A stretch of DNA of 64,000 nucleotides from Candidatus Limnocylindrales bacterium (GTDB taxonomy: Bacteria > Verrucomicrobiota > Verrucomicrobiia > Limisphaerales > UBA11358), in contig DATNHM010000017.1 of assembly GCA_035604955.1 (NCBI GenBank), forward strand, positions 16,853 to 80,852, read 5' to 3'. Position 1 is the first letter of the stretch, and every line of letters begins with the position of its first letter. The notes beneath the pieces were generated by a model. That model was given only the letters and a program-made list of their open reading frames with translations, did not search any database and was not told the DNA's origin. Of this stretch, positions 512 through 29,850 are shown piece after piece. A program made the position numbers and the translations under genes.

Positions 512-1278
512 CTACCACCCTCCTCGTCGCAGGTCCGATCCCAAGTGGAGCGGATTTCGAGCCGTCGACAAAATGCTGCCACCGCCTCCTCAACCCAGTT
601 GTCACGGTCAGTTCGCAACTCAAGTGGAGGCACCGGCCCCAATCCACCAAGATTCTTCGCGAATCGTACCCAATCCGCCGGCCACCCGCCTTCCTCGTCG
701 TCTTCCGTCCAGCTTTCGTCAACTAGAGCGTGCGATAGCATTCGGCGCAGGACTTCAGGATAAACGAGCGCGATGAACTGTGGCGAGCGGGCCATCTCTT
801 TCCAACTCGGCTTTGCTTCGTTGTTGACCAATAGTTGCGGCGGATCGTGCTCAAAGTCCAGTTTCCAGAGCTGCTGACCAAGTGCATCCGGAACGGGCAC
901 AAGCAAATGCCGCCGACGATCGTCCGCCTCGCCAGCCTTCACGAAGGGAATCCCGTCAGCCTCTCCCAGTAGCTTGTGATGTTCCTGTCCGGGCGGCTGC
1001 ACCACTCGCACGCGGAAAAGCAAGCCGTCGGGAACATCAAACTCCACCAGCCGGCGATCAACGGGCACGCGCAATGAGGACACTGTACCCGACGACCATT
1101 GCATCCAAAGGTTCTGCCGATGCGCTTCGACCCAGACTTCAGCGTTGCGCGAGAAGTTGTAGTCTGCCAAGCGCAAGCCTGCGTCGAAAACCCAAACGGA
1201 CTTTTCCTGACGGAGTGTAATAGAAACGTCTTTCCGCCCAATCTTCCTACGACCGGTATAATTAAACGTCCGCTTCAT
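508..1278 (-). CDS. Hypothetical 256-aa protein, fourth gene of the XRE-Dcm-GHKL operon
   Basis: Track ORF. ATG at 1278 is preceded by a GGGGGAG Shine-Dalgarno-like run (minus strand, 1286..1280). It overlaps the GHKL gene end by 17 nt and the next start by 4 nt. The C-terminal half is acidic and Trp-rich (WTEDDEEGGWPADW). No family or catalytic motif recognised. Confidence 0.65.
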   Translation of the reverse strand: MKRTFNYTGRRKIGRKDVSITLRQEKSVWVFDAGLRLADYNFSRNAEVWVEAHRQNLWMQWSSGTVSSLRVPVDRRLVEFDVPDGLLFRVRVVQPPGQEHHKLLGEADGIPFVKAGEADDRRRHLLVPVPDALGQQLWKLDFEHDPPQLLVNNEAKPSWKEMARSPQFIALVYPEVLRRMLSHALVDESWTEDDEEGGWPADWVRFAKNLGGLGPVPPLELRTDRDNWVEEAVAAFCRRLEIRSTWDRTCDEEGGR

Positions 1279-3175
1279 TCTCCCCCTTAAGTTCGATAGC
1301 CCGTATCACGAGGTCGCGCTTGGTGTCGAAGCCGGAAATTTCAAATTGAAAGTCTGGCTTTCTGATTTCCAGTTCCAAGAAATTGGCGTCCGCACGCGAA
1401 ACGAAGACTCCATTCGCTCGGTCCTGTCGAAGCGGCGCGCGAATGAAAGCGAAGTCGTCTGGAGCCCAACGCTTGATGGCGTTGCCGCGACGGACAGCGT
1501 AGCCTGCTTCAATTCTAATTCTCGCAGGAAAAGACTCCAAGGTGGCTTTGCCGGGTTTTACCAGAAACCCACCTTTCACTTGCTCCAACTCAAACCGTTT
1601 TGGTGGCGGAGGCGGAAGTGGCGGAGGTAGTCCAACCACCGTGCCGGACTCTTTCTCTTTGGGCTTCTTCGTTGGCTCTGTCGATCCTTCGTCCGTCGGC
1701 AAAAAGAAAATGTCCAGCAGGAGATTCGGGTCGCCCTTCGTCTCAGCCGCATGTAGCCGCTGCATGATTTCATAAACGCTCCGCGTTACGAACTTGATTG
1801 TGAACGGGCCGTAGAAGTAGCGGTTATGAAACTTGGGCGAGTCCTTCTGCCATTGAGTGTGATTGACGCCCTCGGAGTCACCGAGCAAGCCAGCCAACGG
1901 CGGGTCTTCGACAACGACGAGTGAACGGTTACCTGACATCTGAGGACAGCGCACATCCGTGATGACTATGCCATCTCTCAGAAAGATCGGCCTGTGCCCC
2001 GAGTCACGACATGTGGCAACATACACTGTGGAAAATGACATGCTTTCGGTTCCGCCTTCAGTTTTTGGACGCACTCGCACCGGTACCCTGATTTCCACAT
2101 GCTGCTGCGATTCCAATCGTTTGCGAATTTCGTCCAGCTTCGCTTCGGGAAGCAACTGATCGCCGAAGTCCTTCCAGTCCGGATGGGTCGTTTCAGGCAG
2201 AGTGATTCTCTCCGCGGGTATCGCAGTCGATGCCCAGCTTGCGAATTCAATTACAGCGGCTTCCGGCACTGGCAGAAGTGAGCGGTGCGTCGCCAACGTT
2301 TCGGCATCAATCCTCCAAGATTCCTCGGGACCGTCCAAGTCAACGACAAGTTCACCAAGAAGAATCGGCCAGAAAAAACTTCGGACGATGCCGCGTCTGA
2401 GGTCGGCAACATTCACACGCTCATCCACTGAAGGCACGACGATGGATAGGCCGGGTTCACTTCCGCGCTTCAGCCCAAACACCTTTTCAAAGGAATTGAT
2501 AAATTCTGAGTCTGTGACTGGTTTCACTGGTTCATCTGCAATCTCACGGCATCCGAACCAACCGTCCGGCTGGTAATCTTGTTCCCCAATGGAATGAGTC
2601 CGCACGACAGCCGAACCCATCAACACGCGCGATGGATTGTCGGCGCGCACCGTCAGGCCGAACATTGAGTGGAGCCGGCTGGAGGTGGGGAATACCTGCT
2701 TACCAATGCCCCAGCGACCTAGGCTTTCACCACTCTTTGGTGATTGGCCTTCGGCACGAAAGAAACTAAAGAATGCATTCTGCTCAGCTCGTTCCAACCG
2801 CCACTCATGAACATCGCCGGTCAGGCCTTTAGTACCGAAGTCCTCGAATACGAGATAGCCGCTGCTTTCGTCAAACAGCGTGTTCAAGTTGCGCAGGTTA
2901 AGTCCGCGCTCGAAATTCACGCGGGCCGAGGAAAAATGATTTGCGAGGAATTCTCGCACTTCGGACGGCGCGTTGGGAACAAACTGAATACTCACCTTGA
3001 CTTGCCGTACGCCGCCTGCATCGCGTCGCGCGGCGTCGAGCGAATTTTGAATGCCTTCGCGAACTAAAGCCTCACTCAAATTCTCTAGGCTCTCAGCGGT
3101 AAAAAAGGCATCGTTTGCCGAATCTCTCATGCGATCACATGGTCGGCGCGGGTTGAAGTGCCATAGAGGATTCAC
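1262..3175 (-). CDS. GHKL-superfamily (Bergerat fold) ATPase, sacsin/MORC-like, 637 aa, with a large unassigned C-terminal region
   Basis: N box E40-GIQNSLDA-48, G1 box 111-EDFGTKGLTG-120 and G2 box 152-LGRWGIGKQVF-162 occur in the canonical order and spacing. A poly-proline hinge GLPPPLPPPPPK precedes the last ~110 aa. GTG start at 3175 overlaps the dcm stop (GTGA). An alternative ATG lies at 3130. Confidence 0.8.
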   Translation of the reverse strand: MNPLWHFNPRRPCDRMRDSANDAFFTAESLENLSEALVREGIQNSLDAARRDAGGVRQVKVSIQFVPNAPSEVREFLANHFSSARVNFERGLNLRNLNTLFDESSGYLVFEDFGTKGLTGDVHEWRLERAEQNAFFSFFRAEGQSPKSGESLGRWGIGKQVFPTSSRLHSMFGLTVRADNPSRVLMGSAVVRTHSIGEQDYQPDGWFGCREIADEPVKPVTDSEFINSFEKVFGLKRGSEPGLSIVVPSVDERVNVADLRRGIVRSFFWPILLGELVVDLDGPEESWRIDAETLATHRSLLPVPEAAVIEFASWASTAIPAERITLPETTHPDWKDFGDQLLPEAKLDEIRKRLESQQHVEIRVPVRVRPKTEGGTESMSFSTVYVATCRDSGHRPIFLRDGIVITDVRCPQMSGNRSLVVVEDPPLAGLLGDSEGVNHTQWQKDSPKFHNRYFYGPFTIKFVTRSVYEIMQRLHAAETKGDPNLLLDIFFLPTDEGSTEPTKKPKEKESGTVVGLPPPLPPPPPKRFELEQVKGGFLVKPGKATLESFPARIRIEAGYAVRRGNAIKRWAPDDFAFIRAPLRQDRANGVFVSRADANFLELEIRKPDFQFEISGFDTKRDLVIRAIELKGENEADV

Positions 3176-4833
3176 GGCTTAATCTCCTCAAGGTTGCTTC
3201 GCTTTATCTGGTGATCGGACGCCTTCGCAACTGCACGGATGCGCAATCCAGAACGTTGGGCTTCCACACAGTAAAAATCTTCTTTGCAAATCTCGCCGGC
3301 ATCATGGCGGCGCCAAGCCTCGCGTCCCAAAAGTTCCAGTGCGACCGGCCAACCGCTACGGGTATATCGCTTTGCTAACAGTTCCTCATAGCCGGGTAGC
3401 GCTAGCTGATCAGGACTGATTTGTTCAAAGCTACTCCCGTGATCGAGTGCGTTATCCGGATGCAGGTCAGGAAAGAGAAAGAGCAAGGCACGCCAGCCAT
3501 GAAGGAATTGTTCCGTGGGCAGAGCGCGAAGGCCCCGCCGGTCGAGTTGGGCGAGTTCTCGCAGTTCGTAGGCGGCAGCTTGGCGGGTTTGCGCCTTCGG
3601 AGTACCGGTCTCCAGCCCAGCATGTTTCTGCGCGCGGCTATTCGTTTCAATACGCGCCGGATCAGAGGATGGCGTTTCGAGAAACTCCTTTATCTCGTAG
3701 CCAACGGCCTCGGCGACAAGTGGTGGCACAGCGTTGCCGATGATTCGGAACTGATGCGTGCGCGCTACTGGAAATCGAAACCAATCCGGAAAGCTTTGCA
3801 CGCGCGCGGCCTCGCGCGGAGTGAGCGTACGTGTTTGCGTCGGATGGATGAACATCAATCCATCCTTGGCCAGATGCGCAACGATGGTTGAGCAAAGCCG
3901 TTCACGATGCTGGCGTGTGTAACGGTCGAGAAACACACTGCGGTCGTAGGGGAATTCCATCTTCTCACCACGGGCGATGGCTTGATCGGCGGTTTCACCT
4001 TCGCGCAGCCGGTCAAAGTCACGGAGATCACGTTCGTTATGCGGACGGGAACGGTGTGCGGACAACTTCGCGGCTTCGGCAATTTCGAGAACGTTTTTCA
4101 GATAGTGCGTTGCCGCTTCACCACGTTCAGCTAAGAAATCTTTGCGTCGGCCTAAATCGTAATCGCGTTCTTCAATGCCTTCTCCGGCGACGAGCGGCGG
4201 TAGGTCACCAATGGCGTCCCACAAAGTTGGCGAGCCAAACGCCCGCGACGCTGGCTTCAGTTCACTTAAAAAATAGCTGGGCACATCATTCCGCACACCG
4301 ACGACGAGCTGACGACGGCGTTTCTGGGGCACGCCGAGTTTCCAAGCCTCCTCGACTTGTGCGTGAACGCGGTAGCCGAGCTTGCGGGCATCGGCTTGCA
4401 CGAGTGTAAAGAATTTGCCCTTCGCTGCACTCTGGATGCCCATCACATTTTCCATTACAAACACGCGCGGGCGAAATGCCGCCACGTAATCGAGGAACAT
4501 GCGGTAGAGGTAACGGCGCTTGTCGCGCTTCACACGTGAGCCGTGGTTGGCGGCGTCAACCTGTCGCACAGTGCTGAACCCCTGACACGGCGGCCCGCCT
4601 ACAATGACGTCCACCTGATTTACGGCAAGTTTCGCCATGAGTTTGTCCGGTGGAAACTTGGTGAGGTCTTTACAGAGCGCCATGGTTTCCTTGGGAAAAT
4701 TCGTCTTGAAGGTAGCGATGGCTTCTTTGTTGAAGTCAATCGCCGCCAGCACATTAAAACCAGCGCGTTTCATCCCCAAGCTGAAACCGCCACAGCCGCA
4801 GAAGAGATCAATGCACGTAAGCGGCGTGCTCAT
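3172..4833 (-). CDS. dcm: DNA (cytosine-5)-methyltransferase with a ~168-aa C-terminal extension of unknown function
   Basis: All C5-MTase motifs are present. I: DLFCGCGGFSLG. IV: GGPPCQGFS. VI: FVMENV. VIII: QKRRRQ. IX: REAARVQSFPD. X: GNAVPPLVAEAVG. AGGAG lies 8 nt upstream of ATG 4833. The ATG overlaps the stop of the HTH gene (ATGA 4830-4833). The conserved core ends near aa 385 of 553. Confidence 0.93.
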   Translation of the reverse strand: MSTPLTCIDLFCGCGGFSLGMKRAGFNVLAAIDFNKEAIATFKTNFPKETMALCKDLTKFPPDKLMAKLAVNQVDVIVGGPPCQGFSTVRQVDAANHGSRVKRDKRRYLYRMFLDYVAAFRPRVFVMENVMGIQSAAKGKFFTLVQADARKLGYRVHAQVEEAWKLGVPQKRRRQLVVGVRNDVPSYFLSELKPASRAFGSPTLWDAIGDLPPLVAGEGIEERDYDLGRRKDFLAERGEAATHYLKNVLEIAEAAKLSAHRSRPHNERDLRDFDRLREGETADQAIARGEKMEFPYDRSVFLDRYTRQHRERLCSTIVAHLAKDGLMFIHPTQTRTLTPREAARVQSFPDWFRFPVARTHQFRIIGNAVPPLVAEAVGYEIKEFLETPSSDPARIETNSRAQKHAGLETGTPKAQTRQAAAYELRELAQLDRRGLRALPTEQFLHGWRALLFLFPDLHPDNALDHGSSFEQISPDQLALPGYEELLAKRYTRSGWPVALELLGREAWRRHDAGEICKEDFYCVEAQRSGLRIRAVAKASDHQIKRSNLEEIKP

Positions 4834-7575: not shown

Positions 7576-9923
7576 TCACGGCCTGAAAATGAGGCGGTAG
7601 AACTTGGCCGGAGCCTGCGTTGTGCCGCCGCCTTTACTGGCCGCCGCATAAGGACTGGTCACATTGGTGTCGCCGATCCACGTGCGGAGGTCGGTGGATT
7701 CCTGCAACATGCTTGTGCCATACCATTGCAGCAATATGTTCTGGCTGGTCTGGCTGACGTTGAGGAGCAACGGCGAGACGCCCACCGACGTAATGGTGAA
7801 GGAAGACACCTGGGAGCTGACTATCTGCAAGGCCGCTGGCGCGTTTGAGAACGTAACGTTCTCCGGAGTCACCTCGAGATTATCGCATGTCACTATCTGG
7901 CCTGCGATTGACGCGGACGTTGCCACACTGTCATCCATCGATGCCGGAGCAGAACCGTTAGGACCCACCACTGTGTCAGTGGTGTCGGCCATCCTTTGTG
8001 CCACGGCCAGGGACGCCCCGCTTTGGTGGGTTGCCTCCGCCACCGGCGCTCCTTGATAGTAAGCCTGCACGGTGTAGGTGCTGGCGCCCACCGGCGAAAA
8101 GTCGGCGCTGAGCACATAATTGCTGGTGCCTGCCTTGGTTTCGGTCAGCGTGCCCAATACGCCATTGGTAATGCCGCCGTCGGTCCCAACGATTTGCGAT
8201 TGGATATAGGCACCCACCGGCAGCGTGTTCGACGGATCCAACTCGTTCCATCCCACATCCAAATTCGTCAGGCCACCCGGCAAGGTGATGGACACGCCGT
8301 CCTGGCCTGCGCTGCCCAAATTGGAGATGACCAAGGCCGACCCATCCTGGCCGCCGCTGCTCAGGTTGGAGATAACCTCAATAGAGGCTTGGCCCAATGA
8401 TGTGTTGGTCAAGCCTGCATACGGCAGACTTAGATTCTCGCTCGCAATCGCGAGGTCGGGCACCTGCGAAGCCGTGATCTGAAAGGCGGTTGGTTTGACG
8501 CACGTGCCCAGGTTTGATGGAATAAAATACACCTTGTTGGCGCTCACGATCTGGCCACCCGGCAACTGCATTACCTCGGACTGCACACAGTCCATCGTAT
8601 CGCAAACGTAGCAGCCGTCATCATCCCATTCCCTGTCCCAGGATGTGCCGTCCGGATCAATGCTGAGGATACGGATAATGGCTGACGGCGTGTTGGTGGT
8701 CCCTTGTCCCACCAAAATTCCGTTGAGGTAGGCCTGCACAAGGCAGTTGCTCACCCCCAGTGGCGAAAAGTCCACGTGCACTGCATAGTTCGAGATTCCC
8801 GCCTTGGTCATTCTATCCGCCGCCAATATCCCGTTGGTTACAGTGCCAAAGGTGCCGATCATCGAGCTCTGCACATAGGCGCCGACCGGCAGTGCGTTGC
8901 TTGGGTCCACATCCTGATATTGCACGTCCAGCGCCAACAGATTGGTCGGCAGGGCGATGGTTACGCCGTCCTGTCCGCTGCTGGTCAGGTTGGAGACGAT
9001 CAAAGTCACACCATCCTGGCCTGAGCTGCCCAGATTGGAGATCACCTCGAAAGAGGCTTGGCCCAATGATGTGTTGGTCAATCCTTGATACACGATGCTT
9101 TCATTCTCACTGGTGATCGTGATGGATGGTATTTGGGAAGCGACAATTTGGAACGCAGTCGGCGCAATGGGAGCCTGCGGATTTTCCGGCGTCACATCAA
9201 TCTCGTCGCACGTTACAGAGGTTGTGCCTATCAACGCACTGAATAAACGCACGCGGTTGATCCTGCCCGTGCCATCACCCAGCATTGTGCCCGCGGCCAA
9301 CGAAAGGTTATTCAGCACGGCCAGGGACGACCCGCTTGGATTGGTCGTCTGCGCTACCAGCACCCCGTAAAGATAGGCGCGGACGATATAACCGCTCGCG
9401 CCGACCGGCGAATAGTCCGCGCTGAGCACATAATTGCTGGTGCCGGCCTTCGTCTGCGTCACCGTGCCCAACACCGCCTTGTTGACGCCATTGGTGGGGC
9501 CGACCATCTGCGATTGGACATAGGCCCCACCGGCAATGTGTTGGAAGGGTCCAGGTCCTCATAATTCACACTTAGCGCCGACGTGTTCGCAGGCATGGCG
9601 ATGCCGACGCCGTCCTGTCCGCCACTTGTCAGATTGGAGACGATTAAAGCCGACCCGTCCTGGCCAGTGCTGCCCAGGTTCGAGATGACCAGAAAAGCCT
9701 GCCCCAATGATATGTTGGTCAGGCCCTGATAAACCACGGTATTGGCCAGTGCGGCCGGGGCCAAACCCAGTATGACCAGGCTGACCAGCCACCACCGGGT
9801 CCATCCCCGGAAGCAGGGGGACACTGGCCGGGGATGTGGAATTGTCACCGGAATGTAACAAAGAGAACTGCGAAAATATGTCTTCATAGACGTTTGATTT
9901 GGATCTTGGTTTTTAACTTCCAA
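7576..9923 (-). pseudogene. Secreted repeat protein (~780 aa if intact) split by a 1-nt frameshift. Three ~235-aa repeats plus a C-terminal FYRL module.
   Basis: Track ORFs 9459..9923 (signal peptide plus first repeat) and 7576..9507 are two frames of one gene. The repeat ...DPSN(T/A)LPVGAY(V/I)QS... is broken at LPVG. The minus strand reads CCG GTG GGG CCT where the other copies read GTC GGC GCC TAT and GTG GGT GCC TAT. One G appears to be missing from a G-run (C-run 9525-9528 on the plus strand). It could be a sequencing error. Confidence 0.7.
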
Positions 9924-22618: not shown

Positions 22619-23779
22619 ATGCCCATGACCAAACCCATCGCCACCGTCATCGCGGCCGCCACCATCAGCATCCTCGTCCTGGCCGGCTGCAAGCAGAACT
22701 CGCAAAGTTCCGCAACCCCCGCCGGCGGCAATGGTCTGGTCAAAATCCGTGTCGGTTACATCGGCCTGACCTGCGAGGCCCCCATCTACATGGCGGTGGA
22801 AAAGGGGTTCTTCAAGGAGGAAGGACTGGACCCGGTCCTGGTCAAATGCGACTGGTCGGATTACAAGGACGTAATGGCGTTGGGCGGTTTTGACATCACC
22901 CATCACCTGGTCATGTATTTTCTCAAGCCCATCGAACAGGGCCTGGACGTGAAATTCACCGGCGGCATCCATCGCGGCTGCCTGCGGGTCCAGGCGGCGG
23001 TGAACGGGAAAATAAATTCTGTTGACGACCTTCGGGGCAAGCGGATTGGCATCCCCGGCATGGGCACTCCGCCTTTCATTTTCGCCAACCGGGTCCTCAC
23101 CGCCCATGGCATTGACCCATCCAAAGAGATTACGTGGATCGTTTACCCGGCCGGAGAGCTGGGCCTGGCGTTGGACAAGGGAGACGTGGACGCGGTGGCT
23201 GATTCTGAACCGATCGGCACCCTGCTGGTCGCCCAAGGCAAGGTGAAGAACATCGCCGACCAGGCGAAGGATGCACCTTACAAGGACGAATATTGCTGCG
23301 AGGTGATTGTGAATGGCAAATTCCTTGCCGCCAATCCCAAGGCCGCTGCCGCCGCCACGCGCGCCCTGCTCAAGGCAGCCAAGTGGGTGCAAACCAATCC
23401 CGCCGCGGCCGCCCGGCTTTCGGTTGAAAAAAAATATCTCGCGTCGAACCCGGAACTCAACATGGTCGCGATTTCGCATTTGAATTACATCCCAAGCGTT
23501 TCTCTCGCCGAGGCCTCGGTCAAATCAGCCGCTGTCGCCATGAAGCAAGACGGCCTGCTCAGCCCCAGCACCGACGTGGATGAACTGGCCAAACGCGCCT
23601 TTGTGCATCTGGATGGAGTTTCGGATGAATGGATCAATTCGCTGCAGGTGGAAAAAGTGGCCGGCGGCCAATTGCCCCCGGATGAAAACGCCCGCCTGCT
23701 CGCCGAGCTGTCGCATAGCAAGGCGACTGTCACCGAATATGGCGAAATGTCATGTTGCAGACTGGCCAACACCAAGTAA
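22619..23779 (+). CDS. ABC importer substrate-binding lipoprotein (NitT/TauT, NMT1/THI5-like)
   Basis: Lipobox LVLAGC. VGYIGLTCEAPIYMAVEKGFFKEEGLD is typical of the family. Followed by a cognate permease and ATPase. Confidence 0.8.
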   Translation: MPMTKPIATVIAAATISILVLAGCKQNSQSSATPAGGNGLVKIRVGYIGLTCEAPIYMAVEKGFFKEEGLDPVLVKCDWSDYKDVMALGGFDITHHLVMYFLKPIEQGLDVKFTGGIHRGCLRVQAAVNGKINSVDDLRGKRIGIPGMGTPPFIFANRVLTAHGIDPSKEITWIVYPAGELGLALDKGDVDAVADSEPIGTLLVAQGKVKNIADQAKDAPYKDEYCCEVIVNGKFLAANPKAAAAATRALLKAAKWVQTNPAAAARLSVEKKYLASNPELNMVAISHLNYIPSVSLAEASVKSAAVAMKQDGLLSPSTDVDELAKRAFVHLDGVSDEWINSLQVEKVAGGQLPPDENARLLAELSHSKATVTEYGEMSCCRLANTK

Positions 23780-23796
23780 ACATCGCTCCGCTCGGA

Positions 23797-24789
23797 ATGA
23801 AGGAGCCGGTACCAAAAGCCGACCTCAGACGTGCTGCCGCGTCCAAGGGACGGTGGCGGGCCTTTCTGCCGGTTCCGGGGGCCGTCCTGGTGGCGCTCGC
23901 CGTTCATCTGGGACTTCCGAACAACGAGTTGCCATCCGAAGCCGGTTTATACTCGCGTTTTTTGACATTCATTCTTGGCGCGGCCGTCGCCGCCGGGCTG
24001 GTCCAGTTTCTCTGGCCGGGCCTGCGCCGTTGGATGCGGAACATGTGCCCGATTTTCGGGGCGGCCATCCTGACCTTGAGCCTGTGGGAATTAATTACCG
24101 GAGTTTTGCGTTGGCTCCCCCTGCCCTATTTCCCGGCTCCGGCGGCGGTGTTGCAAAGCATGGTCAATGATCGGGCTCTGCTCTTCGACAGTACCTGGCA
24201 TTCGTTGCTTTTGTTGCTTTCGGGTTACGTGCTGGGCGTCGCGATTGCCCTGATCACCGGAGTTTGCATCGGCTGGTCAACCAGCATGCGTTATTGGGGC
24301 ATGCCGCTGCTGAAGGTGGTCGGACCCATCCCCGCCACCGCCTGGATTCCGCTCGCGATGGTGGTTTCTCCTTCCGCGATGCTTTCGGCGGTGGGTCTGA
24401 TTTCACTTGCGGTCTGGTTTCCGGTAACGATGTTGACCATCTCCGGCATCGCCAACACTCGCGCGTCCTACCTGGACGTCGCCCGCACCCTGGGCGCGGG
24501 GCGGATTTATCTCATCTTTCGGGTCGCCATCCCCGCCGCCATGCCCAGCATCTTCGTCGGATTGTTTATGGGATTGGGAACCTCATTCCTGACGCTGGTG
24601 GTGGCTGAGACGGTCGGCGTGAAATCCGGACTGGGCTGGTACGTGAGCTGGGCACAGGGCTGGGCGGAGTACGGAAAGGTCTTCGCCGCCCTGATTATCA
24701 TGGCCGCCTTTTTTTCAACCATCATGACCTTGCTGTTCAAGTTGCGTGACCGCGTGCTGGGCTGGCAGAAAGGAATGATCAAATGGTGA
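23797..24789 (+). CDS. ABC importer permease (NitT/TauT family)
   Basis: Track ORF 23752..24789. Multiple TM helices. EAA-type loop SYLDVARTLGAGRIYLIFRVAIPAAMP. Confidence 0.8.
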   Translation: MKEPVPKADLRRAAASKGRWRAFLPVPGAVLVALAVHLGLPNNELPSEAGLYSRFLTFILGAAVAAGLVQFLWPGLRRWMRNMCPIFGAAILTLSLWELITGVLRWLPLPYFPAPAAVLQSMVNDRALLFDSTWHSLLLLLSGYVLGVAIALITGVCIGWSTSMRYWGMPLLKVVGPIPATAWIPLAMVVSPSAMLSAVGLISLAVWFPVTMLTISGIANTRASYLDVARTLGAGRIYLIFRVAIPAAMPSIFVGLFMGLGTSFLTLVVAETVGVKSGLGWYVSWAQGWAEYGKVFAALIIMAAFFSTIMTLLFKLRDRVLGWQKGMIKW

Positions 24790-26984
24790 CGTCCTCCCCA
24801 GCGGCCTCCAATGAAGGTTCCCCGCTCAGGATTCTGGGGATTAAGAAGACTTTTCCCGCAGCCAACAGCGCGACGGCGCAAACGCCGGCTTTGGACGAAA
24901 CCACCGTCTCGGTGGCGGCCGGCGAATTCATCTCCATCATCGGTCCGAGCGGCTGCGGCAAATCCACGCTCTTGCGCCTGATTGCCGGTCTCGATTTTCC
25001 CGACTCGGGCGAATTGTGGGTCGGCGATGCCCCCATCACCGGCCCCGGCGCCGAACGGGGCCTGGTTTTTCAGGATCCCAACCTTTTCCCCTGGCTCACG
25101 GTCAGCCACAACATTCAGGCCGGCCTGGTCGCGCGCGGCGTGCTCCATCAGAAACGGCACGAAGTGGATGAATTCATGCGGCTGGTGGGACTGGAAGCCT
25201 TTGCCCATGCTTATCCGCACCATCTTTCCGGTGGCATGGCCCAACGCGTCGCCCTGGCCCGGGCACTCATTAATCATCCCCAGGTGCTGCTGCTGGACGA
25301 ACCGCTGGGCGCGCTGGACGCGTTCACCCGCATGCGGATGCAGGACGAAGTGCTGCGCCTCTGGCAGGCCCGCCGCACCACCATCCTCCTGGTGACCCAT
25401 GACATTGACGAAGCCATCTACATGGGTGACCGCATTTTGATCATGACGCCGCGACCCGGCCGGGTCGAACAAATCATCCCCGTCGCCCTGGAACGTCCGC
25501 GCCAACGCAATAGCGAGGCATTTCTCCGTCTCCGGAGCGAGATATTGGACTTGCTCCACCTGGCCGGCAGCGACTCCCGTAAATCCGGGGGTGGACCATT
25601 CCCGGAAGGCGGCGCATCTGGAACGACACCCCCCGTGCCCGGCAATTCCCCCGGTTGTGAAATTTCTTCACCGCCCACCGGCGGGACCGACTGGCCGGAT
25701 TTGGACGCCCAGGTGATTATCATCGGTGGCGGACCGGCTGGTTCGACCCTCGGCGCTTATCTGGCGCAGGCCGGTGTGCGCCATTTGATTCTGGACCAGG
25801 CCGTGCATCCGCGTGCACACGTCGGCGAGTCGCTGGTTTGCTCCACGACCCGTATTTTTCAGGACATTCATTTTCTGCCCGTGATGGAACGGGAACCATT
25901 CGTGCGCAAGTACGGTGCGGTCTGGACCCACTGGGGAAACGAGCAGGAGCATGTCATCCGCTTTCGTGAAATTCCCGAGCTTGGCCTCACCCAGGATTAC
26001 ACCTATCACGTGGATCGCAGCCGGTTTGACCAGCTCCTGCTCCAACACGCCGCGCGTCAGGGTTCCCGGGTGCTCGAAAATGCGCGCGTGGAAAACGTCG
26101 AGTTTGACGCATCCGGCGCCGCCACCGGGGTGCGCGTGAAGCACAACGGCCAGGAACGCCGGTTGCGCTGCCGGCTGGTGGTGGACGCCTCGGGCCGGAG
26201 CACAGTTCTGGGCTCGCAACTCCACCTCAAACGCCACGACGCCCTCTTCGATCAATTCGCCCTGCACAACTGGTTTGAAGGCGTGGACCGCGGGCCGGCG
26301 GAAACGGCGGATTATATTCACATCCACGTCCTGCCGCTGCCGCGCGCCTGGGCCTGGCTGATTCCCATCAACCGGACGGTGACGTCCGTGGGTATTGTCA
26401 CCAAGGGCGCCGATTTCACCAAAGGCGGGGAGACGGCGGAGGCATTTTTTGCCCGTCACGTCGCCAGTCATCCGTTGCTCGCGCGCCGGATGGCCGGGGC
26501 CCGCCCGGTGCAGGAGTTCACACGCGAAGGCAATTACAGCTACGTCATGGACCGTTTTGCCGGCGACGGCTGGCTGCTCGTGGGCGACGCCGCGCGTTTC
26601 GTGGACCCGGTTTTTTCCTCCGGCGTGAGCGTCGCGTTGGAATCGGCCAAGCGCGCCGCGGAAGCCATCATTCATGCGCTGAAGCGCAACCGCGTGAGCG
26701 CCGATGCCTTTGCCGGATACGAGCGGACGTTGCGCGCCGGCGTGGACATCTGGCGGGAATTCATCCTGCTCTATTACCAGTTGCCACCGCTTTTCCTGGA
26801 CCTGATTGCCCGGCCCGATACCCGGGGCCAATTGACCAAACTCTTGCAGGGCGACGTCTATGACCGGTCGGCGGTGCCGATTCTGGCGCAGATGCACGGC
26901 ACCATTCAAGCGGTGGCGGCCGACCAGCAACATCCCTGGCACCCGCACCTGAGCAAAGATTTGATCCCGGCTGGTGAGAATTAA
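24783..26984 (+). CDS. Fusion protein: ABC transporter ATPase (aa ~16-260) + Pro/Gly-rich linker + FAD-dependent halogenase-like/geranylgeranyl-reductase-like oxidoreductase (aa ~309-733)
   Basis: ABC part: Walker A GPSGCGKST, Q-loop VFQDPNLFPW, signature LSGGMAQR, Walker B LLLDEP, H-loop VTHD. C-terminal part: VIIIGGGPAGSTLG (GxGxxG), WAWLIP (WxWxIP), VVDASGRS and GDAARFVDPVFSSGV. It is one uninterrupted ORF. The ATG overlaps the permease stop by 7 nt. Confidence 0.8.
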   Translation: MVTSSPAASNEGSPLRILGIKKTFPAANSATAQTPALDETTVSVAAGEFISIIGPSGCGKSTLLRLIAGLDFPDSGELWVGDAPITGPGAERGLVFQDPNLFPWLTVSHNIQAGLVARGVLHQKRHEVDEFMRLVGLEAFAHAYPHHLSGGMAQRVALARALINHPQVLLLDEPLGALDAFTRMRMQDEVLRLWQARRTTILLVTHDIDEAIYMGDRILIMTPRPGRVEQIIPVALERPRQRNSEAFLRLRSEILDLLHLAGSDSRKSGGGPFPEGGASGTTPPVPGNSPGCEISSPPTGGTDWPDLDAQVIIIGGGPAGSTLGAYLAQAGVRHLILDQAVHPRAHVGESLVCSTTRIFQDIHFLPVMEREPFVRKYGAVWTHWGNEQEHVIRFREIPELGLTQDYTYHVDRSRFDQLLLQHAARQGSRVLENARVENVEFDASGAATGVRVKHNGQERRLRCRLVVDASGRSTVLGSQLHLKRHDALFDQFALHNWFEGVDRGPAETADYIHIHVLPLPRAWAWLIPINRTVTSVGIVTKGADFTKGGETAEAFFARHVASHPLLARRMAGARPVQEFTREGNYSYVMDRFAGDGWLLVGDAARFVDPVFSSGVSVALESAKRAAEAIIHALKRNRVSADAFAGYERTLRAGVDIWREFILLYYQLPPLFLDLIARPDTRGQLTKLLQGDVYDRSAVPILAQMHGTIQAVAADQQHPWHPHLSKDLIPAGEN

Positions 26985-27020
26985 TTTCGCCATCCGGCCT
27001 GTCGAGGAAAGAACAGCGAT

Positions 27021-27072
27021 TTGTAGTGTCGAGCCTGCGGCTCGAAATCGGCGCGCAGCGCCGACGCTACAA
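27021..27072. repeat. Structured element: outer inverted repeat enclosing two perfect 5-bp hairpins
   Basis: TTGTAGTGTCG ... CGACGCTACAA forms the outer stem (one mismatch). It encloses GAGCC-TGC-GGCTC and GGCGC-GCA-GCGCC. It lies 37 nt after the stop of the ABC-FAD gene, so it could be a terminator or REP-like element. Confidence 0.5.
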
Positions 27073-27196
27073 CCTTTCAAATGACCGTACCCTCTGCCAA
27101 AATCGTTGGACAATCCGCCAGCACCGGAATAGGGTCGTATCCATGAAGAAAATAATACTGTGCTTTTCGTTCCAATAACAGGTTGGGCCACATCGT

Positions 27197-27595
27197 ATGC
27201 ACCCAATTTTGGCCAAGCGCATTGAGATACCGGAGCCATGGTTTGCAGCTTTCTTGTTCGCTTTCAAGCTGCTCACCGTAAGCGCGGCCGTCTTGTTGCT
27301 CATTTGGTATGTGATGCTACCTCCAAATCACTCAAACGCGCAGACCGGGTTTGATGAGACGTGGTATATGACATCTGACGATTTTGCCATGGTAGCGTTC
27401 GGCGTGAGCTTTTTATATTTTCTCGCTGCGGGCGTGCTGCTGATTGGCGGGTTGATTCAGCTATTCAAGTGTTCGCGCCGGGCAGCGATATGGAGCATCG
27501 CGTTTGGGATCTTTGCACTGATTGTTGGCATTGTTTTAGCAGCCTGCGTTTCACCGCCGAACGGATATTTTGAGATTTTTGGGCCTCTGACATAG
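27197..27595 (+). CDS. Hypothetical small membrane protein (about 3-4 TM helices)
   Basis: 132-aa ORF with clear hydrophobic helices, in a locally AT-richer stretch. No family recognised. Confidence 0.45.
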   Translation: MHPILAKRIEIPEPWFAAFLFAFKLLTVSAAVLLLIWYVMLPPNHSNAQTGFDETWYMTSDDFAMVAFGVSFLYFLAAGVLLIGGLIQLFKCSRRAAIWSIAFGIFALIVGIVLAACVSPPNGYFEIFGPLT

Positions 27596-27736: not shown

Positions 27737-27958
27737 ATGAACCGCACAGTCGAAGCAGTGATTGATGAGCAGGGCACGGTGCGCCTGCTTGAGAAAATTC
27801 AACTGCCGTCGGCGCGCCACGCACTCGTCACTATTCTCGAAGACGAGCCGGTTGCCCACCTCAACGAGACGGCGCTCTTGAGCGAAACCGCGCTCGCCGA
27901 GGATTGGAACCGACCGGAGGAGGATGCCGCGTGGGCTTATTTGCAACAGGGTCGATAG
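27737..27958 (+). CDS. Type II antitoxin (73 aa)
   Basis: MNRTVEAVIDEQGTVRLLEKIQLPSARHALVTILEDEP fits the small beta-rich antitoxin pattern. The C-terminal LSETALAEDWNRPEEDAAWAYL tail is common in such antitoxins. It overlaps the downstream MazF-like gene. Confidence 0.65.
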   Translation: MNRTVEAVIDEQGTVRLLEKIQLPSARHALVTILEDEPVAHLNETALLSETALAEDWNRPEEDAAWAYLQQGR

Positions 27959-28272
27959 TTCTTGTCCGGTTTCCCTTTTCCGATCTGTCGCAATCCAAAT
28001 TGCGACCGGCGGTGGTGCTGGCGGATTGCGAGCGCAACGACTGGCTGCTCTGCCAGATCACCAGCAATCCGTATGCAGATACGCGCGCGATTCAACTCAC
28101 GGAAAAGGATTTTCTCACGGGTTCGCTGCGCGCCACAAGCTTCGCCCGTCCGACGAAGCTTTTCACCGCGCATCAAAGTTTGATTGCTCCACCCGCGATT
28201 GGTGTTCTGCATGACGCTTCGTTCAATCGGATCACAGACGTCCTTATTCATTTCCTGCGACCAAAAGCCTGA
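27931..28272 (+). CDS. PemK/MazF-family toxin (endoribonuclease fold)
   Basis: Track ORF 27904..28272. The likely start is GTG 27931, preceded by GGAGGAGG (27916-27923). GSIVLVRFPFSDLSQSKLRPAVVLA...LLCQITSN...SFARPTKLFT matches the PemK pattern. Confidence 0.75.
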   Translation: MGLFATGSIVLVRFPFSDLSQSKLRPAVVLADCERNDWLLCQITSNPYADTRAIQLTEKDFLTGSLRATSFARPTKLFTAHQSLIAPPAIGVLHDASFNRITDVLIHFLRPKA

Positions 28273-28299: not shown

Positions 28300-28348
28300 T
28301 AAACTGACCGCGTGAAATCCCAAGGCGCGGTTTATCTGGTCGGGGCCG
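28300..28348 (+). repeat. Direct repeat, right copy (functional 5' end of cobA-hemD)
   Basis: TAAACTGACCGCGTGAAATCCCAAGGCGCGGTTTATCTGGTCGGGGCCG. It contains GTG 28312, the start of cobA-hemD. Confidence 0.85.
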
Positions 28349-29850
28349 GGCCGGGCGACGCGAGTCTGCTCACGTTGCGCGGCGCGGAACTGCTCCGCCG
28401 CGCCGATGTCGTCCTCTACGACGCGCTCGTGAACCCGGAATTGCTCCGGCTGGCGTCGCCTTCCGCCGAACTCGTCGCCCGCGGCAAAAACATGACGATG
28501 CCGCAAAAGGAAATCACCGCCCTGCTCGTCGCCCGGGCGCGTGAAGGTAAATGCGTCGTCCGGCTCAAGGGCGGCGATCCGTATATCTTCGGCCGGGGCG
28601 GCGAGGAGGCTGAGGCGCTGGCGGCGGCGAAAATCTCTTTTGAAGTCGTGCCCGGCGTCTCGTCCATCGTGGCGGCGCCGAATTACGCCGGTATTCCCCT
28701 CACCCACCGTGAGCATTGCTCCAGTTTCACCGTGTTCACCGGCCATAGCGATTCGGCGGACGCGGCCACGGCGTTGCGCTACGAACAAATCGCCAAAATT
28801 CCCGGCACCAAGGTCGTGCTCATGGGCACGGACAACCTGGACGACTGGACGAAATCGCTCATCGCGCAGGGCATGGCACCTGAGACGCCGGTGGCCATTG
28901 TCCAATGGGGCACGTTGGGAAGACAAAAATCGGCCGCCGGCACGCTGGCCACGATTGCGGCGCTCGCGGCAAAGGAAAAAATCTTTCCGCCCGCGCTCAC
29001 CATTATCGGCGACGTGGTCAAGCTGCGCGAGAAACTGAACTGGTTCGAAGAGCGTCCGCTGTTTGGCCGGCGCATCGTGGTCACGCGCGCCCGGGCGCAG
29101 TCCGGTGATTTTGCGCAGCGACTGACGGAGCTCGGCGCGGAGGTGCTGGAAATTCCGGCCATCAAGACCGTGCCGACCTCCAACAAGCAGGACGTCGTGG
29201 ACGCGCTGCTGGAGTTAAATTCCTACGACTGGCTGGTGTTCACGAGCGCGAATGGCGTGACAGCGTTCTTTGAACTTTTTTTCAAACGCTTTGAGGATCT
29301 GCGCGACCTCGGCGGCGCGCGCATTGCGGCGGTCGGCCCGGCCACGGCGGCGAAATTGCGCGAACTGCATTTGCAGGTGGACCTGACGCCGGACGAGGCG
29401 CTGGGCGCAAAAATCGCCGCGGTCTTCGCCAAATATGAAAGCGTGGAAAATCTGAAGATGTGCCTGCTGCGCGCCGGAGAAGCGAATCCCGACCTGCCGC
29501 AGGCATTGGAAAAGCTGGGCGCGATTGTGGACGACATCGCGATATACCACACGGTCGCCGAGACGGAGGATTTAACCGGCGCCGGCGCGAGTTTGCTGGA
29601 GAACGGTGCGGATTGGATTACGTTCACGAGCGGCTCGACGGTGAAACATTTTCACGCGCGATTCAATTTGCCGAAGCTGTTGAAAAAATTTCCGCAAATG
29701 AAACTGGCGTCCATCGGCCCGGAAACCAGCAAAGCCATCCGCGCCCAGGGATTAACCCCGGCGCTCGAAGCCAAAGAGCACACCACAAACGGTTTGATTG
29801 CGGAATTGTTGCGCGCAACCAAACCGGCAGAACCGCAGGCGGAGGAATAA
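28312..29850 (+). CDS. cobA: Uroporphyrinogen-III C-methyltransferase / uroporphyrinogen-III synthase fusion (CobA-HemD)
   Basis: SUMT motifs VYLVGAGPGD, LKGGDPYIFGRGGEE and VPGVSS. The C-terminal ~250 aa are HemD-like (RIVVTRARAQ..., second half WLVFTSANGV). GTG start. Confidence 0.88.
   Translation: MKSQGAVYLVGAGPGDASLLTLRGAELLRRADVVLYDALVNPELLRLASPSAELVARGKNMTMPQKEITALLVARAREGKCVVRLKGGDPYIFGRGGEEAEALAAAKISFEVVPGVSSIVAAPNYAGIPLTHREHCSSFTVFTGHSDSADAATALRYEQIAKIPGTKVVLMGTDNLDDWTKSLIAQGMAPETPVAIVQWGTLGRQKSAAGTLATIAALAAKEKIFPPALTIIGDVVKLREKLNWFEERPLFGRRIVVTRARAQSGDFAQRLTELGAEVLEIPAIKTVPTSNKQDVVDALLELNSYDWLVFTSANGVTAFFELFFKRFEDLRDLGGARIAAVGPATAAKLRELHLQVDLTPDEALGAKIAAVFAKYESVENLKMCLLRAGEANPDLPQALEKLGAIVDDIAIYHTVAETEDLTGAGASLLENGADWITFTSGSTVKHFHARFNLPKLLKKFPQMKLASIGPETSKAIRAQGLTPALEAKEHTTNGLIAELLRATKPAEPQAEE

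Follow-up and report, generated by a model that had tools for sequence, protein, structure and literature searches.

The window, which is the whole stretch of DNA analysed (64 kb), encodes a substrate-binding lipoprotein, an ABC permease and an ABC ATPase, which continues behind a linker into a flavin-dependent halogenase. The features are listed below, with the basis of each assignment in brackets.

22619..23779, + strand: substrate-binding lipoprotein, 386 aa, NMT1/SsuA-like fold (Pfam NMT1/NMT1_2, AF2, Foldseek)
22772..22774, + strand: Cys52 codon of the binding protein, beta1-to-alpha1 loop (orthologue alignment, AF2 placement)
23294..23299, + strand: vicinal Cys226-Cys227 codons of the binding protein (orthologue alignment)
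23752..24789, + strand: ABC permease, 345 aa, BPD_transp_1 (Pfam/NCBIfam)
24783..26984, + strand: fused gene for ABC ATPase, linker and flavin-dependent halogenase, 733 aa (Pfam, homologues, Logan contigs)
24783..25568, + strand: nucleotide-binding domain, aa 1-262, NitT/TauT type, Walker A at 24942-24968 (Pfam ABC_tran)
25569..25697, + strand: disordered Pro/Gly/Ser-rich linker, about aa 263-305 (column identity, AF2)
25698..26981, + strand: PltA-clade flavin-dependent halogenase domain, aa 306-733 (PDB phmmer, motif conservation)
25725-25742, + strand: GxGxxG of the halogenase domain (motif)
25839-25841, + strand: clade-specific Cys353 (motif alignment)
25908-25910, + strand: catalytic Lys376 (alignment with PltA/Mpy16)
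26349-26366, + strand: WxWxIP of the halogenase domain (motif)
within 26583-26627, + strand: FxxPxxSxG (motif)

The fused gene is a single frame of 733 codons closed by a stop codon, and its start (ATG 24783-24785) overlaps the end of the permease gene (stop codon 24787-24789). Both had been reported in a preliminary description of this DNA, and both are borne out. Logan contigs from four peat-metagenome runs of three studies (2017, 2024) cover 24500-27200 without insertion, deletion or joint. One single contig spans 24500-27050 with 0 differences to the window and a second one crosses the linker region (25207-25730); the frame over 25560-25710, which the preliminary description wanted confirmed, is open and free of frameshifts. 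The same fusion was found in other genomes, in more than 110 clusters from JGI, ENA, NCBI and Logan (56-100% identity; length 700-810 aa), and motif conservation was counted over 111 full-length fused homologues. The frames of the fused gene are broken in a related nanopore-derived MAG locus (L007), so such errors occur, but an assembly or sequencing error that joined two ordinary genes here is ruled out for practical purposes by four independent short-read assemblies matching the window without indels, by the more than 110 fused clusters and by a linker that stays open in frame although its sequence is unconserved.

In the N-terminal part, Pfam ABC_tran was detected at aa 38-175 (E 7.9e-33), together with all elements of an ABC nucleotide-binding domain: Walker A (GPSGCGKST, aa 54-62), the signature LSGGM (aa 148-152), Walker B with the catalytic Glu (LLLDEP, aa 169-174) and the H-loop (VTHD, aa 204-207). 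The Gly, Lys, Ser and Thr of Walker A, the Ser-Gly-Gly-Met of the signature, the Asp-Glu of Walker B and the His of the H-loop are invariant in 110-111 of the 111 homologues. The domain is thus complete, as had been stated, and of the NitT/TauT type. Its best NCBIfam matches are SaoA (230 bits), then TauB, NtrCD and SsuB; with 219-230 bits, each of these equivalogs stayed below its curated cutoff (292-395 bits). The Pro/Gly/Ser linker is present as described, with its extent corrected from about 48 aa to about aa 260-304, where AF2 pLDDT is < 50. Among the fused homologues its length varies from 20 to 88 aa, with a column identity of 0.14. Being unconserved and disordered, the linker resembles a tether more than a rigid allosteric module.

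The C-terminal part matches Pfam FAD_binding_3 (aa 309-635) and Trp_halogenase (aa 405-667), both at about 1e-28. PDB phmmer returned full-length alignments with PltA (5dbj, 8.7e-106), Mpy16 (5buk, 1.1e-101) and ChlB4 (7fco, 2.9e-100), in which PltA residues 6-447 pair with residues 4-428 of the halogenase domain. None of the NCBIfam cutoffs was reached for CmlS (175.5/900), QhpG (143.1/240) or the GG-reductase subfamily (143.5/158.8). Motifs of flavin-dependent halogenases (FDH), the tunnel motif Fx.Px.Sx.G included, were taken as defined in PMC8407142. In GGGPAG (aa 315-320), G315, G317 and G320 are invariant (111/111) and position 316 is G in 99/111; in WAWLIP (aa 523-528), both Trp occur in 111/111 and Ile and Pro in 110/111. 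The GESL motif is invariant as well, and GDAARFVDPVFSSGV (aa 601-615 of the fused protein) contains the tunnel motif as F606-V-D-P609-V-F-S612-S-G614. Variation of the motifs among the 111 homologues is confined to non-critical positions.

During FDH catalysis, reduced FAD from a separate reductase reacts with O2 to a flavin hydroperoxide, which is attacked by halide; the resulting hypohalous acid passes to a conserved Lys at the end of the tunnel, which hands the electrophilic halogen to the bound substrate. Lys376, the counterpart of this residue in the window, pairs with the second Lys of 'FPKKFGA' in PltA and Mpy16 and is invariant (111/111). With the catalytic Lys and the FAD and halogenase residues intact on alignment, and with all motifs named in the preliminary description found (the GxGxxG of VIIIGGGPAGS, WAWLIP), the end-to-end match to PltA, Mpy16 and ChlB4 makes the assignment stronger than the former "halogenase-like": judged by its sequence, the C-terminal half is a full-length halogenase with predicted activity. 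Both halves are under purifying selection, with catalytic residues invariant or nearly so.

PltA, Mpy16 and ChlB4 are variant B FDH and share with the window domain GxGxxG, GESL, the catalytic Lys, WxWxIP, GDAARFVDPxFSSGV and the C-terminal helical region. They are, however, stand-alone enzymes of natural-product clusters acting on pyrrolyl- or aryl-S-carrier proteins, whereas the window domain is fused to an ABC ATPase. It also lacks the insertion that follows the Lys motif in PltA and Mpy16, and Cys353 ('GESLVC') is invariant in the fused clade, whereas all others have Pro ('GESLVP'). These closest characterised halogenases depend on pyrrole or aryl substrates tethered to a carrier protein rather than on free solutes (PMC8407142). 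Representative stand-alone relatives of the clade are 42-49% identical to the domain, and the nearest of them (45-49%) are not located beside ABC transporters.

The most informative clue, which the preliminary description had missed, is the Cys/Sec-bearing pocket of the binding protein. This protein has a lipobox Cys24 and belongs to the Thi5/ThiY/SsuA/NrtA fold class (AF2 and Foldseek; model pLDDT 66.5, moderate confidence). Its best NCBIfam match is SsuA_fam (99 bits, cutoff 163.5), and SaoX scores 42 bits. Among 58 orthologues, 133 of the 386 residues are at least 97% invariant. C52, C77, C121, C226, C227 and C380 are invariant, with C52 and C226/C227 present in 57-58 of the 58 sequences, and H95 (at least 90%), H96 and H118 are conserved. 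The permease has 146 invariant residues, C172 among them. In the binding proteins of two loci, L082 and L084, an in-frame TGA stands at the position equivalent to C52, where orthologues about 80% identical (L086, L088) have Cys; L082 reads 'VGFLPVT-TGA-HLTCPV', while L086, L088, P. debontii and P. flavus read 'VGFLPVTCHLTCPV'. This TGA is a probable selenocysteine codon. Folding predicts hairpins of -22 to -24 kcal/mol 5-15 nt past it in L082 and L084, which would be candidates for a SECIS element.

A related use of such residues has been proposed for SAO, the selenocysteine-assisted organometallic system found in Clostridioides difficile and other anaerobes. The three transporter proteins have SaoA, SaoP and SaoX as their top or near-top NCBIfam matches, all far under the cutoffs (230/360, 81.5/295 and 42/300, respectively). 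C52 and C226-C227 of the window protein are spaced like C50 and C224-C225 of SaoX, and selenocysteine occurs in ABC binding proteins of both systems, here probably, in L082 and L084. SaoX is described as an NMT1-type lipoprotein with Cys50 and Cys224/225 (Haft & Gwadz, bioRxiv 10.1101/2022.07.06.499078), and the invariant cysteines at matching positions make the partner binding proteins of the halogenases unusual. The Sec/Cys of the SaoP permease gate is, however, missing, the corresponding sequences being 'VAETVG' in type A and 'VAAEMIA' in type B cassettes, and SaoL, SaoE, SaoC, SaoT and SaoD of the nine-gene SAO locus are not among the neighbours in the window. The SAO hosts are strict anaerobes, whereas the present hosts are soil Verrucomicrobiota, and the preprint (bioRxiv 10.1101/2022.07.06.499078) makes no mention of halogenases or flavoproteins.

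Two sulfur systems offer further comparisons. Operons of the ssuEADCB type combine a NitT/TauT sulfonate importer with a two-component flavin monooxygenase and its reductase. They belong to the same transporter family, include the best family match of the window binding protein (SsuA_fam) and follow the same logic, an importer encoded with an enzyme that needs free reduced flavin. Their enzyme is a luciferase-like monooxygenase, whereas that of the window is halogenase-like by family, physically fused and without a flavin reductase nearby; SsuA lacks the Cys/Sec set, and the window protein scores below the SsuA family cutoff. The DszB pathway likewise includes two-component flavin enzymes. The desulfinase DszB (2de2, 2de3) shares the periplasmic-binding-protein fold class (Foldseek E about 1e-10) and has a functional Cys27 just past the first strand (sequence verified), a putative counterpart of C52; DszB is a cytoplasmic enzyme, whereas the window protein is a transporter subunit.

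Neighbouring genes encode AmgK, MurU, CobA-HemD, a PemK-like toxin and RND efflux proteins. Among the larger predicted genes of the window, none encodes a carrier protein (PP-binding), NRPS/PKS, adenylating enzyme or flavin reductase, which sets the halogenase apart from the usual tailoring enzymes of local clusters. Three metatranscriptomes gave nothing for this locus. Between type A and type B fusions the halogenase domains are 67-81% identical, the ATPases 42-47%, and the trees of the two domains disagree in line with these values; a single halogenase clade is joined to two ATPase paralogues. P0123 and P0264 are fusions of a more remote kind. The split version, which had been proposed as worth searching for, is found in the cultured Prosthecobacter debontii and Phragmitibacter flavus, where binding protein, permease, ATPase and a separate halogenase lie within one operon, the halogenase gene at times one gene away from that of the ATPase. 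A halogenase also adjoins unfused type A cassettes in L010, L063 and L069, and additional halogenase genes head the operons of L082 and L084. At least four halogenase lineages with 25-37% mutual identity accompany these cassettes (the PltA-like fused domain, the c17 type, the 536-aa protein of L082 and the 467-aa protein of L084). On account of the two ATPase paralogues, the remote fusions and the split version in one operon, the coupling of ATPase and halogenase looks selected, and it recurs independently. Nevertheless, 54 of the 65 informative representative-genome loci have a cassette without linked halogenase, as do L095 and L096; the halogenase is an accessory of a widely conserved importer that can do without it.

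As far as sequence can tell, the system is a binding-protein-dependent ABC importer with two ATPase subunits, each carrying a predicted-intact PltA-clade halogenase on a tether of 20-88 residues. We tentatively propose, as our preferred reading of its function, that the halogenase acts at the exit of the importer on imported, probably thiophilic cargo. The tether would hold the two halogenase domains at the cytoplasmic exit, and the solute might therefore be halogenated, or oxidatively transformed by electrophilic halogen, upon entry. The cargo could be an organosulfur compound or a small molecule with selenium or a soft metal(loid), for example, because thiols are conserved in the cleft region of both cassette types and selenocysteine is probable in some lineages; 'thiophilic' is thus a probable attribute drawn from residue patterns and from analogy with a speculative preprint. 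The facultative association speaks against this proposal, as do the carrier-tethered substrates of the closest characterised enzymes and the location of the nearest stand-alone relatives away from ABC transporters. Divergent halogenase subfamilies on the same transporters are also more easily explained by a co-substrate in common than by a common organic substrate. The first interpretation, a transporter motor coupled to a redox or halogenating enzyme that may modify the imported substrate, is thus partly supported: its architecture and enzyme assignment stand, and the modification on entry keeps the tentative rank given here.

Such a co-substrate could be an anion supplied by the importer and used by the halogenases, with tethering or co-encoding placing the enzyme where the ion is concentrated. 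This seems unlikely, even though an anion, FADH2 and O2, not an organic substrate, are what all FDH have in common. Candidates for the anion are halides, pseudohalides and other soft anions (thiocyanate, selenocyanate, iodide or hydrosulfide, for example), and their uptake would be useful in ion-poor peat and soil. Nitrate, bicarbonate and cyanate importers occur in the NitT/TauT family and fold class, the L084 operon also encodes an outer-membrane barrel of the Alginate_exp type, CynR is the best match of the neighbouring LysR regulator (208 bits, below the cutoff of 277), and the habitat is peat, soil and wetland. Known halide sites, however, consist of backbone amides, Ser/Thr/Tyr, Trp/Asn or Arg and do not use thiolates or selenolates. 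Furthermore, most cassettes have no linked halogenase, the binding protein best matches the sulfonate-type SsuA_fam and not NrtA/CmpA/CynA, and we know of no halide ABC importer as a precedent.

The halogenase-like domain might instead be a cytoplasmic sensor of a ligand, the flavin redox state or O2 that gates the ATPase. This idea is modelled on trans-inhibition by C-terminal domains of other importer ATPases, and MalK, MetN, ModC and OpuAA, which have regulatory C-domains, are precedents. Closer ones are NrtC and CmpC of the same transporter family (8wm7, 9u9z, 9uak), with a large regulatory domain behind the nucleotide-binding domain; that domain is a binding-protein homologue sensing the transported anion, whereas the window protein has an enzyme with an intact active site on a long disordered linker. 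A divergent LysR regulator adjoins 28 unfused cassettes and is missing from the fused type A loci, so the protein itself might have taken over part of the control. A role in gating is rather improbable nonetheless. Pure sensing would not require the near-invariance of the catalytic Lys, WxWxIP and the tunnel motif over 111 sequences, and a long, disordered linker so variable in length is a poor fit for allosteric coupling. The separate partner gene of the cultured relatives and the extra stand-alone halogenases within the same operons point in the same direction.

About equally improbable is a halogenase whose substrate has nothing to do with the cargo, the ATPase providing membrane recruitment, dimerisation or co-expression only. 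Its substrate would be made elsewhere and could be carrier-protein-tethered or membrane-associated. The carrier-tethered substrates of the closest characterised relatives would suit such an arrangement, as would the aryl-polyene-like set near the L082 fusion (an AMP-binding enzyme, another halogenase, a FabA/ApeI-like dehydratase and MMPL) and c11, a conserved small four-helix membrane protein that accompanies the system. The repeated choice of ATPases from two paralogous importers with Cys/Sec binding proteins alone would be unexpected for generic anchoring, however, neither a carrier protein nor biosynthetic genes turned up in the set of larger predicted genes of the window, and the split version at the operon level points to a shared pathway.

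The proposal of a halogenase acting at the importer exit can be taken further, to a hitherto unrecognised uptake-and-transformation system in which a Cys/Sec-thiolate binding protein delivers a thiophilic compound directly to halogenases whose electrophilic halogen, bound to the enzyme, cleaves or activates it; in this extended form it is very doubtful. Its hosts would be Verrucomicrobiota and perhaps some Planctomycetota, its cargo might be an organometal(loid), organoselenium or organosulfur species, and the reaction could be halodemetalation of a carbon-metal bond or attack on C-S or C-Se, for example. If true, the halogenase would have a primary-metabolic or detoxifying role, not one in natural-product decoration, and simple organohalogens in peat and soil might have a biological origin in this system.

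The accepted role of flavin-dependent halogenases is that of tailoring enzymes in secondary-metabolite clusters, and ABC importer ATPases carry, to our knowledge, regulatory extra domains but not enzymes. In line with the preliminary description, which knew of no characterised example, literature searches and term searches in halogenase papers yielded no description of the ATPase-halogenase architecture; existing names of fused homologues are automatic only, such as 'ABC-type ... ATPase subunit/flavin-dependent dehydrogenase'. In the present case, a very widely conserved importer of abundant soil and peat bacteria has a predicted-intact halogenase on a tether or in its operon, outside any biosynthetic cluster. 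The partner binding proteins take the recent proposal of Cys/Sec-lined ABC binding proteins beyond gut anaerobes to soil phyla, and the split version in the cultured P. debontii and P. flavus makes the question open to experiment. If active, these enzymes would be halogenases for free small molecules, would place halogenation or halogen-mediated chemistry within nutrient acquisition or detoxification, and may have a share in the natural, still poorly explained formation of soil organohalogens.

The region from 24783 to 26984 on the plus strand is one uninterrupted frame of 733 codons and belongs to a cassette of three genes, all on the same strand:

22619-23779 (+), binding protein
23752-24789 (+), permease
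24783-26984 (+), fused protein (ABC ATPase, linker and flavin-dependent halogenase)

The ATG of the fused gene overlaps the stop codon of the permease gene, which is the next gene upstream. Every motif that the preliminary description had quoted for this ORF was found, and the frame is open. Pfam analysis assigned ABC_tran to residues 38-175 and FAD_binding_3 and Trp_halogenase to a region spanning residues 309-667. Because the frame across the linker was to be confirmed with reads, Logan contigs were inspected; contigs from four peat-metagenome runs of three studies cover 24500-27200 without indel or joint (one identical over 24500-27050, another spanning 25207-25730). The proposed search for the same fusion in other genomes was also successful. 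In a search of 5.8 billion proteins, the best 120 matches (56-100% identity, mostly 700-810 aa) showed the same architecture, and more than 110 fused homologues were obtained. The conservation across homologues supports the frame more strongly than the contigs do. An artefact or frameshift is ruled out by the independent assemblies together with the more than 110 fused homologues. Three metatranscriptomes of the source sample placed nothing on the operon; with 50-60 million letters each, these runs are too small to be informative.

In 111 full-length homologues, the catalytic residues of both domains show no or almost no variation. For the ATPase these are the Gly, Lys, Ser and Thr of Walker A, the Ser-Gly-Gly-Met of LSGGM, the Asp-Glu of Walker B and the His of the H-loop; in the C-terminal domain they comprise GxGxxG, HVGESL, Lys376, the two Trp of WxWxIP and the GD motif. 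In the same alignment, the interdomain segment showed a column identity of 14% and a length of 20-88 residues. AlphaFold2, run with a 37-sequence alignment, predicted two confident domains (pLDDT mostly 80-97) and a disordered linker (residues 260-304, pLDDT < 50). The pTM of the fused protein was only 0.59, so that the model fixes no relative orientation of the two domains. These results show a genuine, conserved fused protein with two intact active sites and a flexible tether. Two short GC-rich hairpins, single-copy in the window, lie about 40 nt past the stop codon of the fused gene (27026-27072); in peat assemblies they occur at 8-11 times the local depth and at many contig branch points, which suggests a dispersed REP-like or terminator repeat.

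The N-terminal half is an ATPase of the NitT/TauT type, with SaoA, TauB, NtrCD and SsuB as best NCBIfam matches (219-230 bits, under the equivalog cutoffs). Membership in the CmlS, TauB, SsuB, NtrCD or Sao equivalogs was rejected, as every score was under its cutoff. The C-terminal domain had been described as flavin halogenase-like, which held true and could be stated far more specifically. Compared to all PDB sequences, it aligned end to end with PltA (5dbj, E 8.7e-106), Mpy16 (5buk, E 1.1e-101) and ChlB4 (7fco, E 2.9e-100), which are carrier-protein-dependent "variant B" flavin-dependent halogenases (PMC8407142). Further matches with E-values from 1e-51 to 1e-28 comprised an unnamed halogenase (8zop), 3e1t, 5bul/5bva, the flavoprotein/dehydrogenase 3nix, CmlS, RadH and CtcP-type enzymes. 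Geranylgeranyl reductases and monooxygenases scored much more weakly. A generic FAD oxidoreductase of the geranylgeranyl reductase, QhpG or UbiH type was rejected, because these scored far below the halogenases and the domain has the complete set of four halogenase motifs.

With FADH2, O2 and a halide, flavin-dependent halogenases generate a Lys-guided electrophilic halogen (PMC8407142). The active-site check that had been suggested placed the Lys of PltA ('FPKKFGA') at K376 ('FVRKYGA'), and FVDPVFSSG matches the tunnel motif FxxPxxSxG of these enzymes (review PMC8407142). The fused clade has a few private invariant residues in comparison to its stand-alone relatives. The most notable is Cys353 in 'GESLVC' (window 25839-25841), which directly follows the flavin-site motif GESLV in 111 of 111 fused homologues; PltA, Mpy16 and nearly all sampled representative stand-alone relatives possess Pro at this position. 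After clustering of the library at 50% identity, a single representative remained for the fused clade, and its closest stand-alone relatives are 42-49% identical.

When the 120 homologues were split by domain, two kinds of fusion became apparent. In type A, the kind found in the window, the ATPase (64-100%) and the halogenase (63-100%) both resemble those of the window. Type B (ten proteins, e.g. P0102 and P0120) combines a similar halogenase domain (67-81%) with an ATPase of only 42-47% identity, and its partners differ as well (binding protein only 21-26%, permease only 31-34% identical). In rough neighbour-joining trees, calculated without support values, type A ATPases were interleaved with unfused Verrucomicrobial ATPases and type B formed a distant clade, whereas the halogenase domains of both types were interleaved in one tight clade. 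Since the two trees differ, the halogenase module has been exchanged between two ATPase paralogues, or repeatedly gained and lost on them. Two remote fusions were also detected, P0123 (ATPase 43%, halogenase 47% identical to the window's) and P0264 (43% and 34%); at the position of Cys353 they carry Tyr and Pro, respectively. The coupling of ATPase and halogenase is recurrent and not accidental.

The split version, an ATPase gene next to a separate halogenase gene, had likewise been proposed as a search target and was found in the cultured species Prosthecobacter debontii and Phragmitibacter flavus. In P. debontii, one strand carries the genes for the binding protein, the permease, an ATPase of 267 aa and a halogenase of 418 aa, and the next gene, on the other strand, encodes a membrane protein of 127 aa. 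P. flavus shows the same arrangement with an additional Na/H-exchanger gene preceding the halogenase gene. The ATPases are 69-70% identical to the N-terminal domain of type B fusions. The halogenases have the full motif set and are 72-78% identical to that of locus L069, a subfamily found beside type A cassettes, but they share only about 30% identity with the PltA-like domain of the fusions. The split version thus involves a different halogenase subfamily. For the stand-alone proteins closest to the fused domain (P0122, P0270, P0125), no simple split version was found; they are surrounded by a gene for an AMP-binding enzyme, by a set of MarR, Na-H exchanger and NicO, or by unrelated genes.

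In two contexts unrelated to each other (L094:10786-13417 and L090:2755-7166), a gene of the Na/H-exchanger family accompanies a halogenase gene: between ATPase and halogenase in P. flavus, and elsewhere in an operon of MarR, halogenase, Na/H exchanger and NicO adjoining a Fur-family regulator. A four-helix membrane protein of 124-151 aa (cluster c11) recurs beside both cassette types and beside halogenase genes. It or a similar protein is encoded at L093:11982-12365 (-) and L082:7720-8166, and also at L006, L010, L014, L017, L032, L048, L069 and L073. Its conserved motifs are 'LWCY', 'PRLWLTSxGLS' and 'MPF(C/F)VSSFxALVK'; no Pfam family was found, one c11-like member had no match in NCBIfam, and the protein is not encoded in the window.

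The distribution was analyzed with one genome per species, which yielded 80 loci, in Verrucomicrobiota MAGs of soil, peat and freshwater origin:

Fused state: 8 of 80 loci (L001-L008)
Separate halogenase gene beside the cassette: 3 of 80 loci (L010, L063, L069)
Cassette with neither fusion nor adjacent halogenase: 54 of 80 loci
Too short to classify: 15 of 80 loci

At the other 72 loci an orthologous cassette is present, whose ATPase stops after about 265 residues; identities to the window proteins are mostly 64-93% (binding protein), 60-84% (permease) and 72-82% (ATPase). These counts show that the importer is ancient and widespread and that the halogenase is an optional addition. A divergent LysR regulator (top match CynR, 208 bits, cutoff 277) is common at unfused loci and absent from fused loci and the window. 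Downstream of unfused cassettes, a redox gene set (cNMP-binding/4Fe-4S protein, membrane protein, multihaem cytochrome) occurs that is limited to one order.

Two type B contexts chosen for their long contigs from the binding-protein search, and not via the fusion (L095, L096), contain no halogenase. At L096:1-10000, the type B cassette occupies the slot that holds type A in related Chthoniobacterales (L031, L036, L065, L078); PolX, SLT and PriA flank both (69-82% identical). One importer paralogue thus seems to have replaced the other in place, which suggests that both cassettes are functionally interchangeable. At L095:12543-13289, about 3 kb downstream of the unfused type B cassette, a gene with a prokaryotic STING domain (PF20300) was detected.

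The best clue to the cargo is the binding protein. In 58 Verrucomicrobial orthologues, 133 of its 386 residues are at least 97% conserved, including the lipobox Cys24, six other cysteines (C52, C77, C121, C226, C227, C380) and H95, H96 and H118; in a second alignment H95 was slightly short of invariant. The protein is thus exceptionally well conserved, and its six invariant non-lipobox Cys together with the three His are unusual for a periplasmic solute receptor. The AF2 model, of only moderate confidence (pLDDT 66.5), places C52 in the loop that connects strand 1 to helix 1, a usual ligand-contact site of this fold. Structural neighbours of the model were Thi5, 3qsl, ThiY, PqqT, SsuA, TauA, NrtA/CmpA and DszB. 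A profile alignment of the family with DszB (hhalign), addressing a possible equivalence of Cys27 and C52, gave no meaningful alignment.

At two loci, the codon of the binding-protein gene that aligns with C52 is an in-frame TGA:

L082, 8170-9240, binding-protein gene, TGA at 8314
L084, 8120-9265, binding-protein gene, TGA at 8273

Due to this TGA, gene callers split each gene into two ORFs (48 or 51 aa plus 291 or 319 aa). L082 reads 'VGFLPVT-TGA-HLTCPV' where the approximately 80% identical orthologues of L086, L088, P. debontii and P. flavus read 'VGFLPVTCHLTCPV'. This alignment of TGA with Cys is the standard signature of a selenocysteine/cysteine pair, and both proteins probably contain selenocysteine. 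Hairpins, as candidate SECIS elements, were found downstream of both TGA codons.

In the L082 and L084 operons, the first gene in each is a further divergent halogenase-like gene, and the latter operon also encodes an Alginate_exp-type outer-membrane barrel. About 2 kb past the type B fusion, L082:14425-22139 holds an aryl-polyene-like set (PaaA/PaaC-like protein, methyltransferase, AMP-binding enzyme, a third halogenase of 424 aa, FabA/ApeI-like dehydratase, MMPL). Just downstream of the remote fusion P0264, L084:15164-20436 holds a sulfate-activation set (PAPS_reduct/CysD-like, CysN-APS kinase and a CysQ-like protein fused to APS kinase) with a radical SAM/SPASM gene.

A comparable transporter is described for the SAO (selenocysteine-assisted organometallic) system of anaerobes, in which the NitT/TauT-type transporter SaoA/SaoP has selenoprotein subunits (Haft & Gwadz 2022, 10.1101/2022.07.06.499078). 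Its lipoprotein SaoX possesses conserved Cys50, Cys192 and Cys224/225, which converge in a predicted pocket (10.1101/2022.07.06.499078). Among the NCBIfam matches of the three window proteins, SaoA, SaoP and SaoX rank first or nearly first, and the spacing of C52 to C226/227 is the same as in SaoX. However, the scores are far under the cutoffs, the window permease lacks the Sec or Cys at the gate seen in SaoP, and the remaining SAO genes are all absent. The system is therefore a distant analogue of SAO and not a member. A term search of the preprint (10.1101/2022.07.06.499078) yielded no mention of halogenases, flavins or Verrucomicrobia.

Nothing in the 64-kb window resembles a biosynthetic cluster; no carrier protein, NRPS/PKS, adenylating enzyme or flavin reductase was found among its larger predicted genes. 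Neighbouring genes encode AmgK, MurU, a GNAT acetyltransferase, a PemK/MazF-like toxin and a CobA-HemD fusion, and further genes encode RND and MacB efflux systems, sensor kinases, glycoside hydrolases, an FGE-sulfatase-type protein and a C5 DNA methylase. In comparison to the close relatives L001 and L003, the cassette is inverted in place within conserved flanks, and a functional link to AmgK/MurU or CobA-HemD was therefore rejected. Between the transporter operon and cobA-hemD, an overlapping pair (27737-28272) of a 73-aa ORF without family match and a 122-aa PemK/MazF-like toxin (Pfam E 1.3e-06) is probably a type II toxin-antitoxin module. The adjacent 512-aa fusion (28312-29850) combines uroporphyrinogen-III C-methyltransferase (CobA/CysG C-terminal type) with uroporphyrinogen-III synthase (HemD). 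The segment 508-4833 is a candidate restriction-modification or defence island; it contains a C5 cytosine DNA methylase (3172-4833, minus strand), followed on the same strand by two large ORFs for which Pfam gave no match (1262-3175 and 508-1278).

Binding-protein-dependent transporters of the NitT/TauT type are importers. Two halogenase domains per transporter would be tethered at the cytoplasmic exit, where they might act on the incoming cargo, and the thiol or selenol set of the binding proteins suggests that this cargo is thiophilic. That the cargo is handed to an active halogenase is the most favoured, still tentative explanation. Alternatively, the importer might supply an anion co-substrate of the halogenases, as several divergent halogenase subfamilies associate with the same transporters; the thiolate-lined site differs from known halide sites, and this explanation is unlikely. 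NrtC and CmpC provide a precedent for a regulatory domain on such an ATPase, but the strictly conserved catalytic residues and the floppy linker make a regulatory role of the halogenase quite improbable. A co-localisation without any link to the cargo is similarly doubtful, given that halogenases are repeatedly fused with, or adjacent to, two paralogous importers with Cys/Sec binding proteins. The remaining probability falls to something else, outside these readings.

The component families are known. What appears to be undescribed is their combination, in which an importer ATPase carries an enzyme domain, a halogenase of the PltA clade occurs away from any biosynthetic cluster, and the partner binding proteins are of the Cys/Sec kind. 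The fusion was not described in the literature searched or in the papers checked by term, and databases give automatic names only, in agreement with the preliminary description, which was not aware of a characterised example of the architecture. The combination is directly testable, because cultured relatives carry the split operon, and it would surprise specialists for halogenases and for ABC transporters alike.
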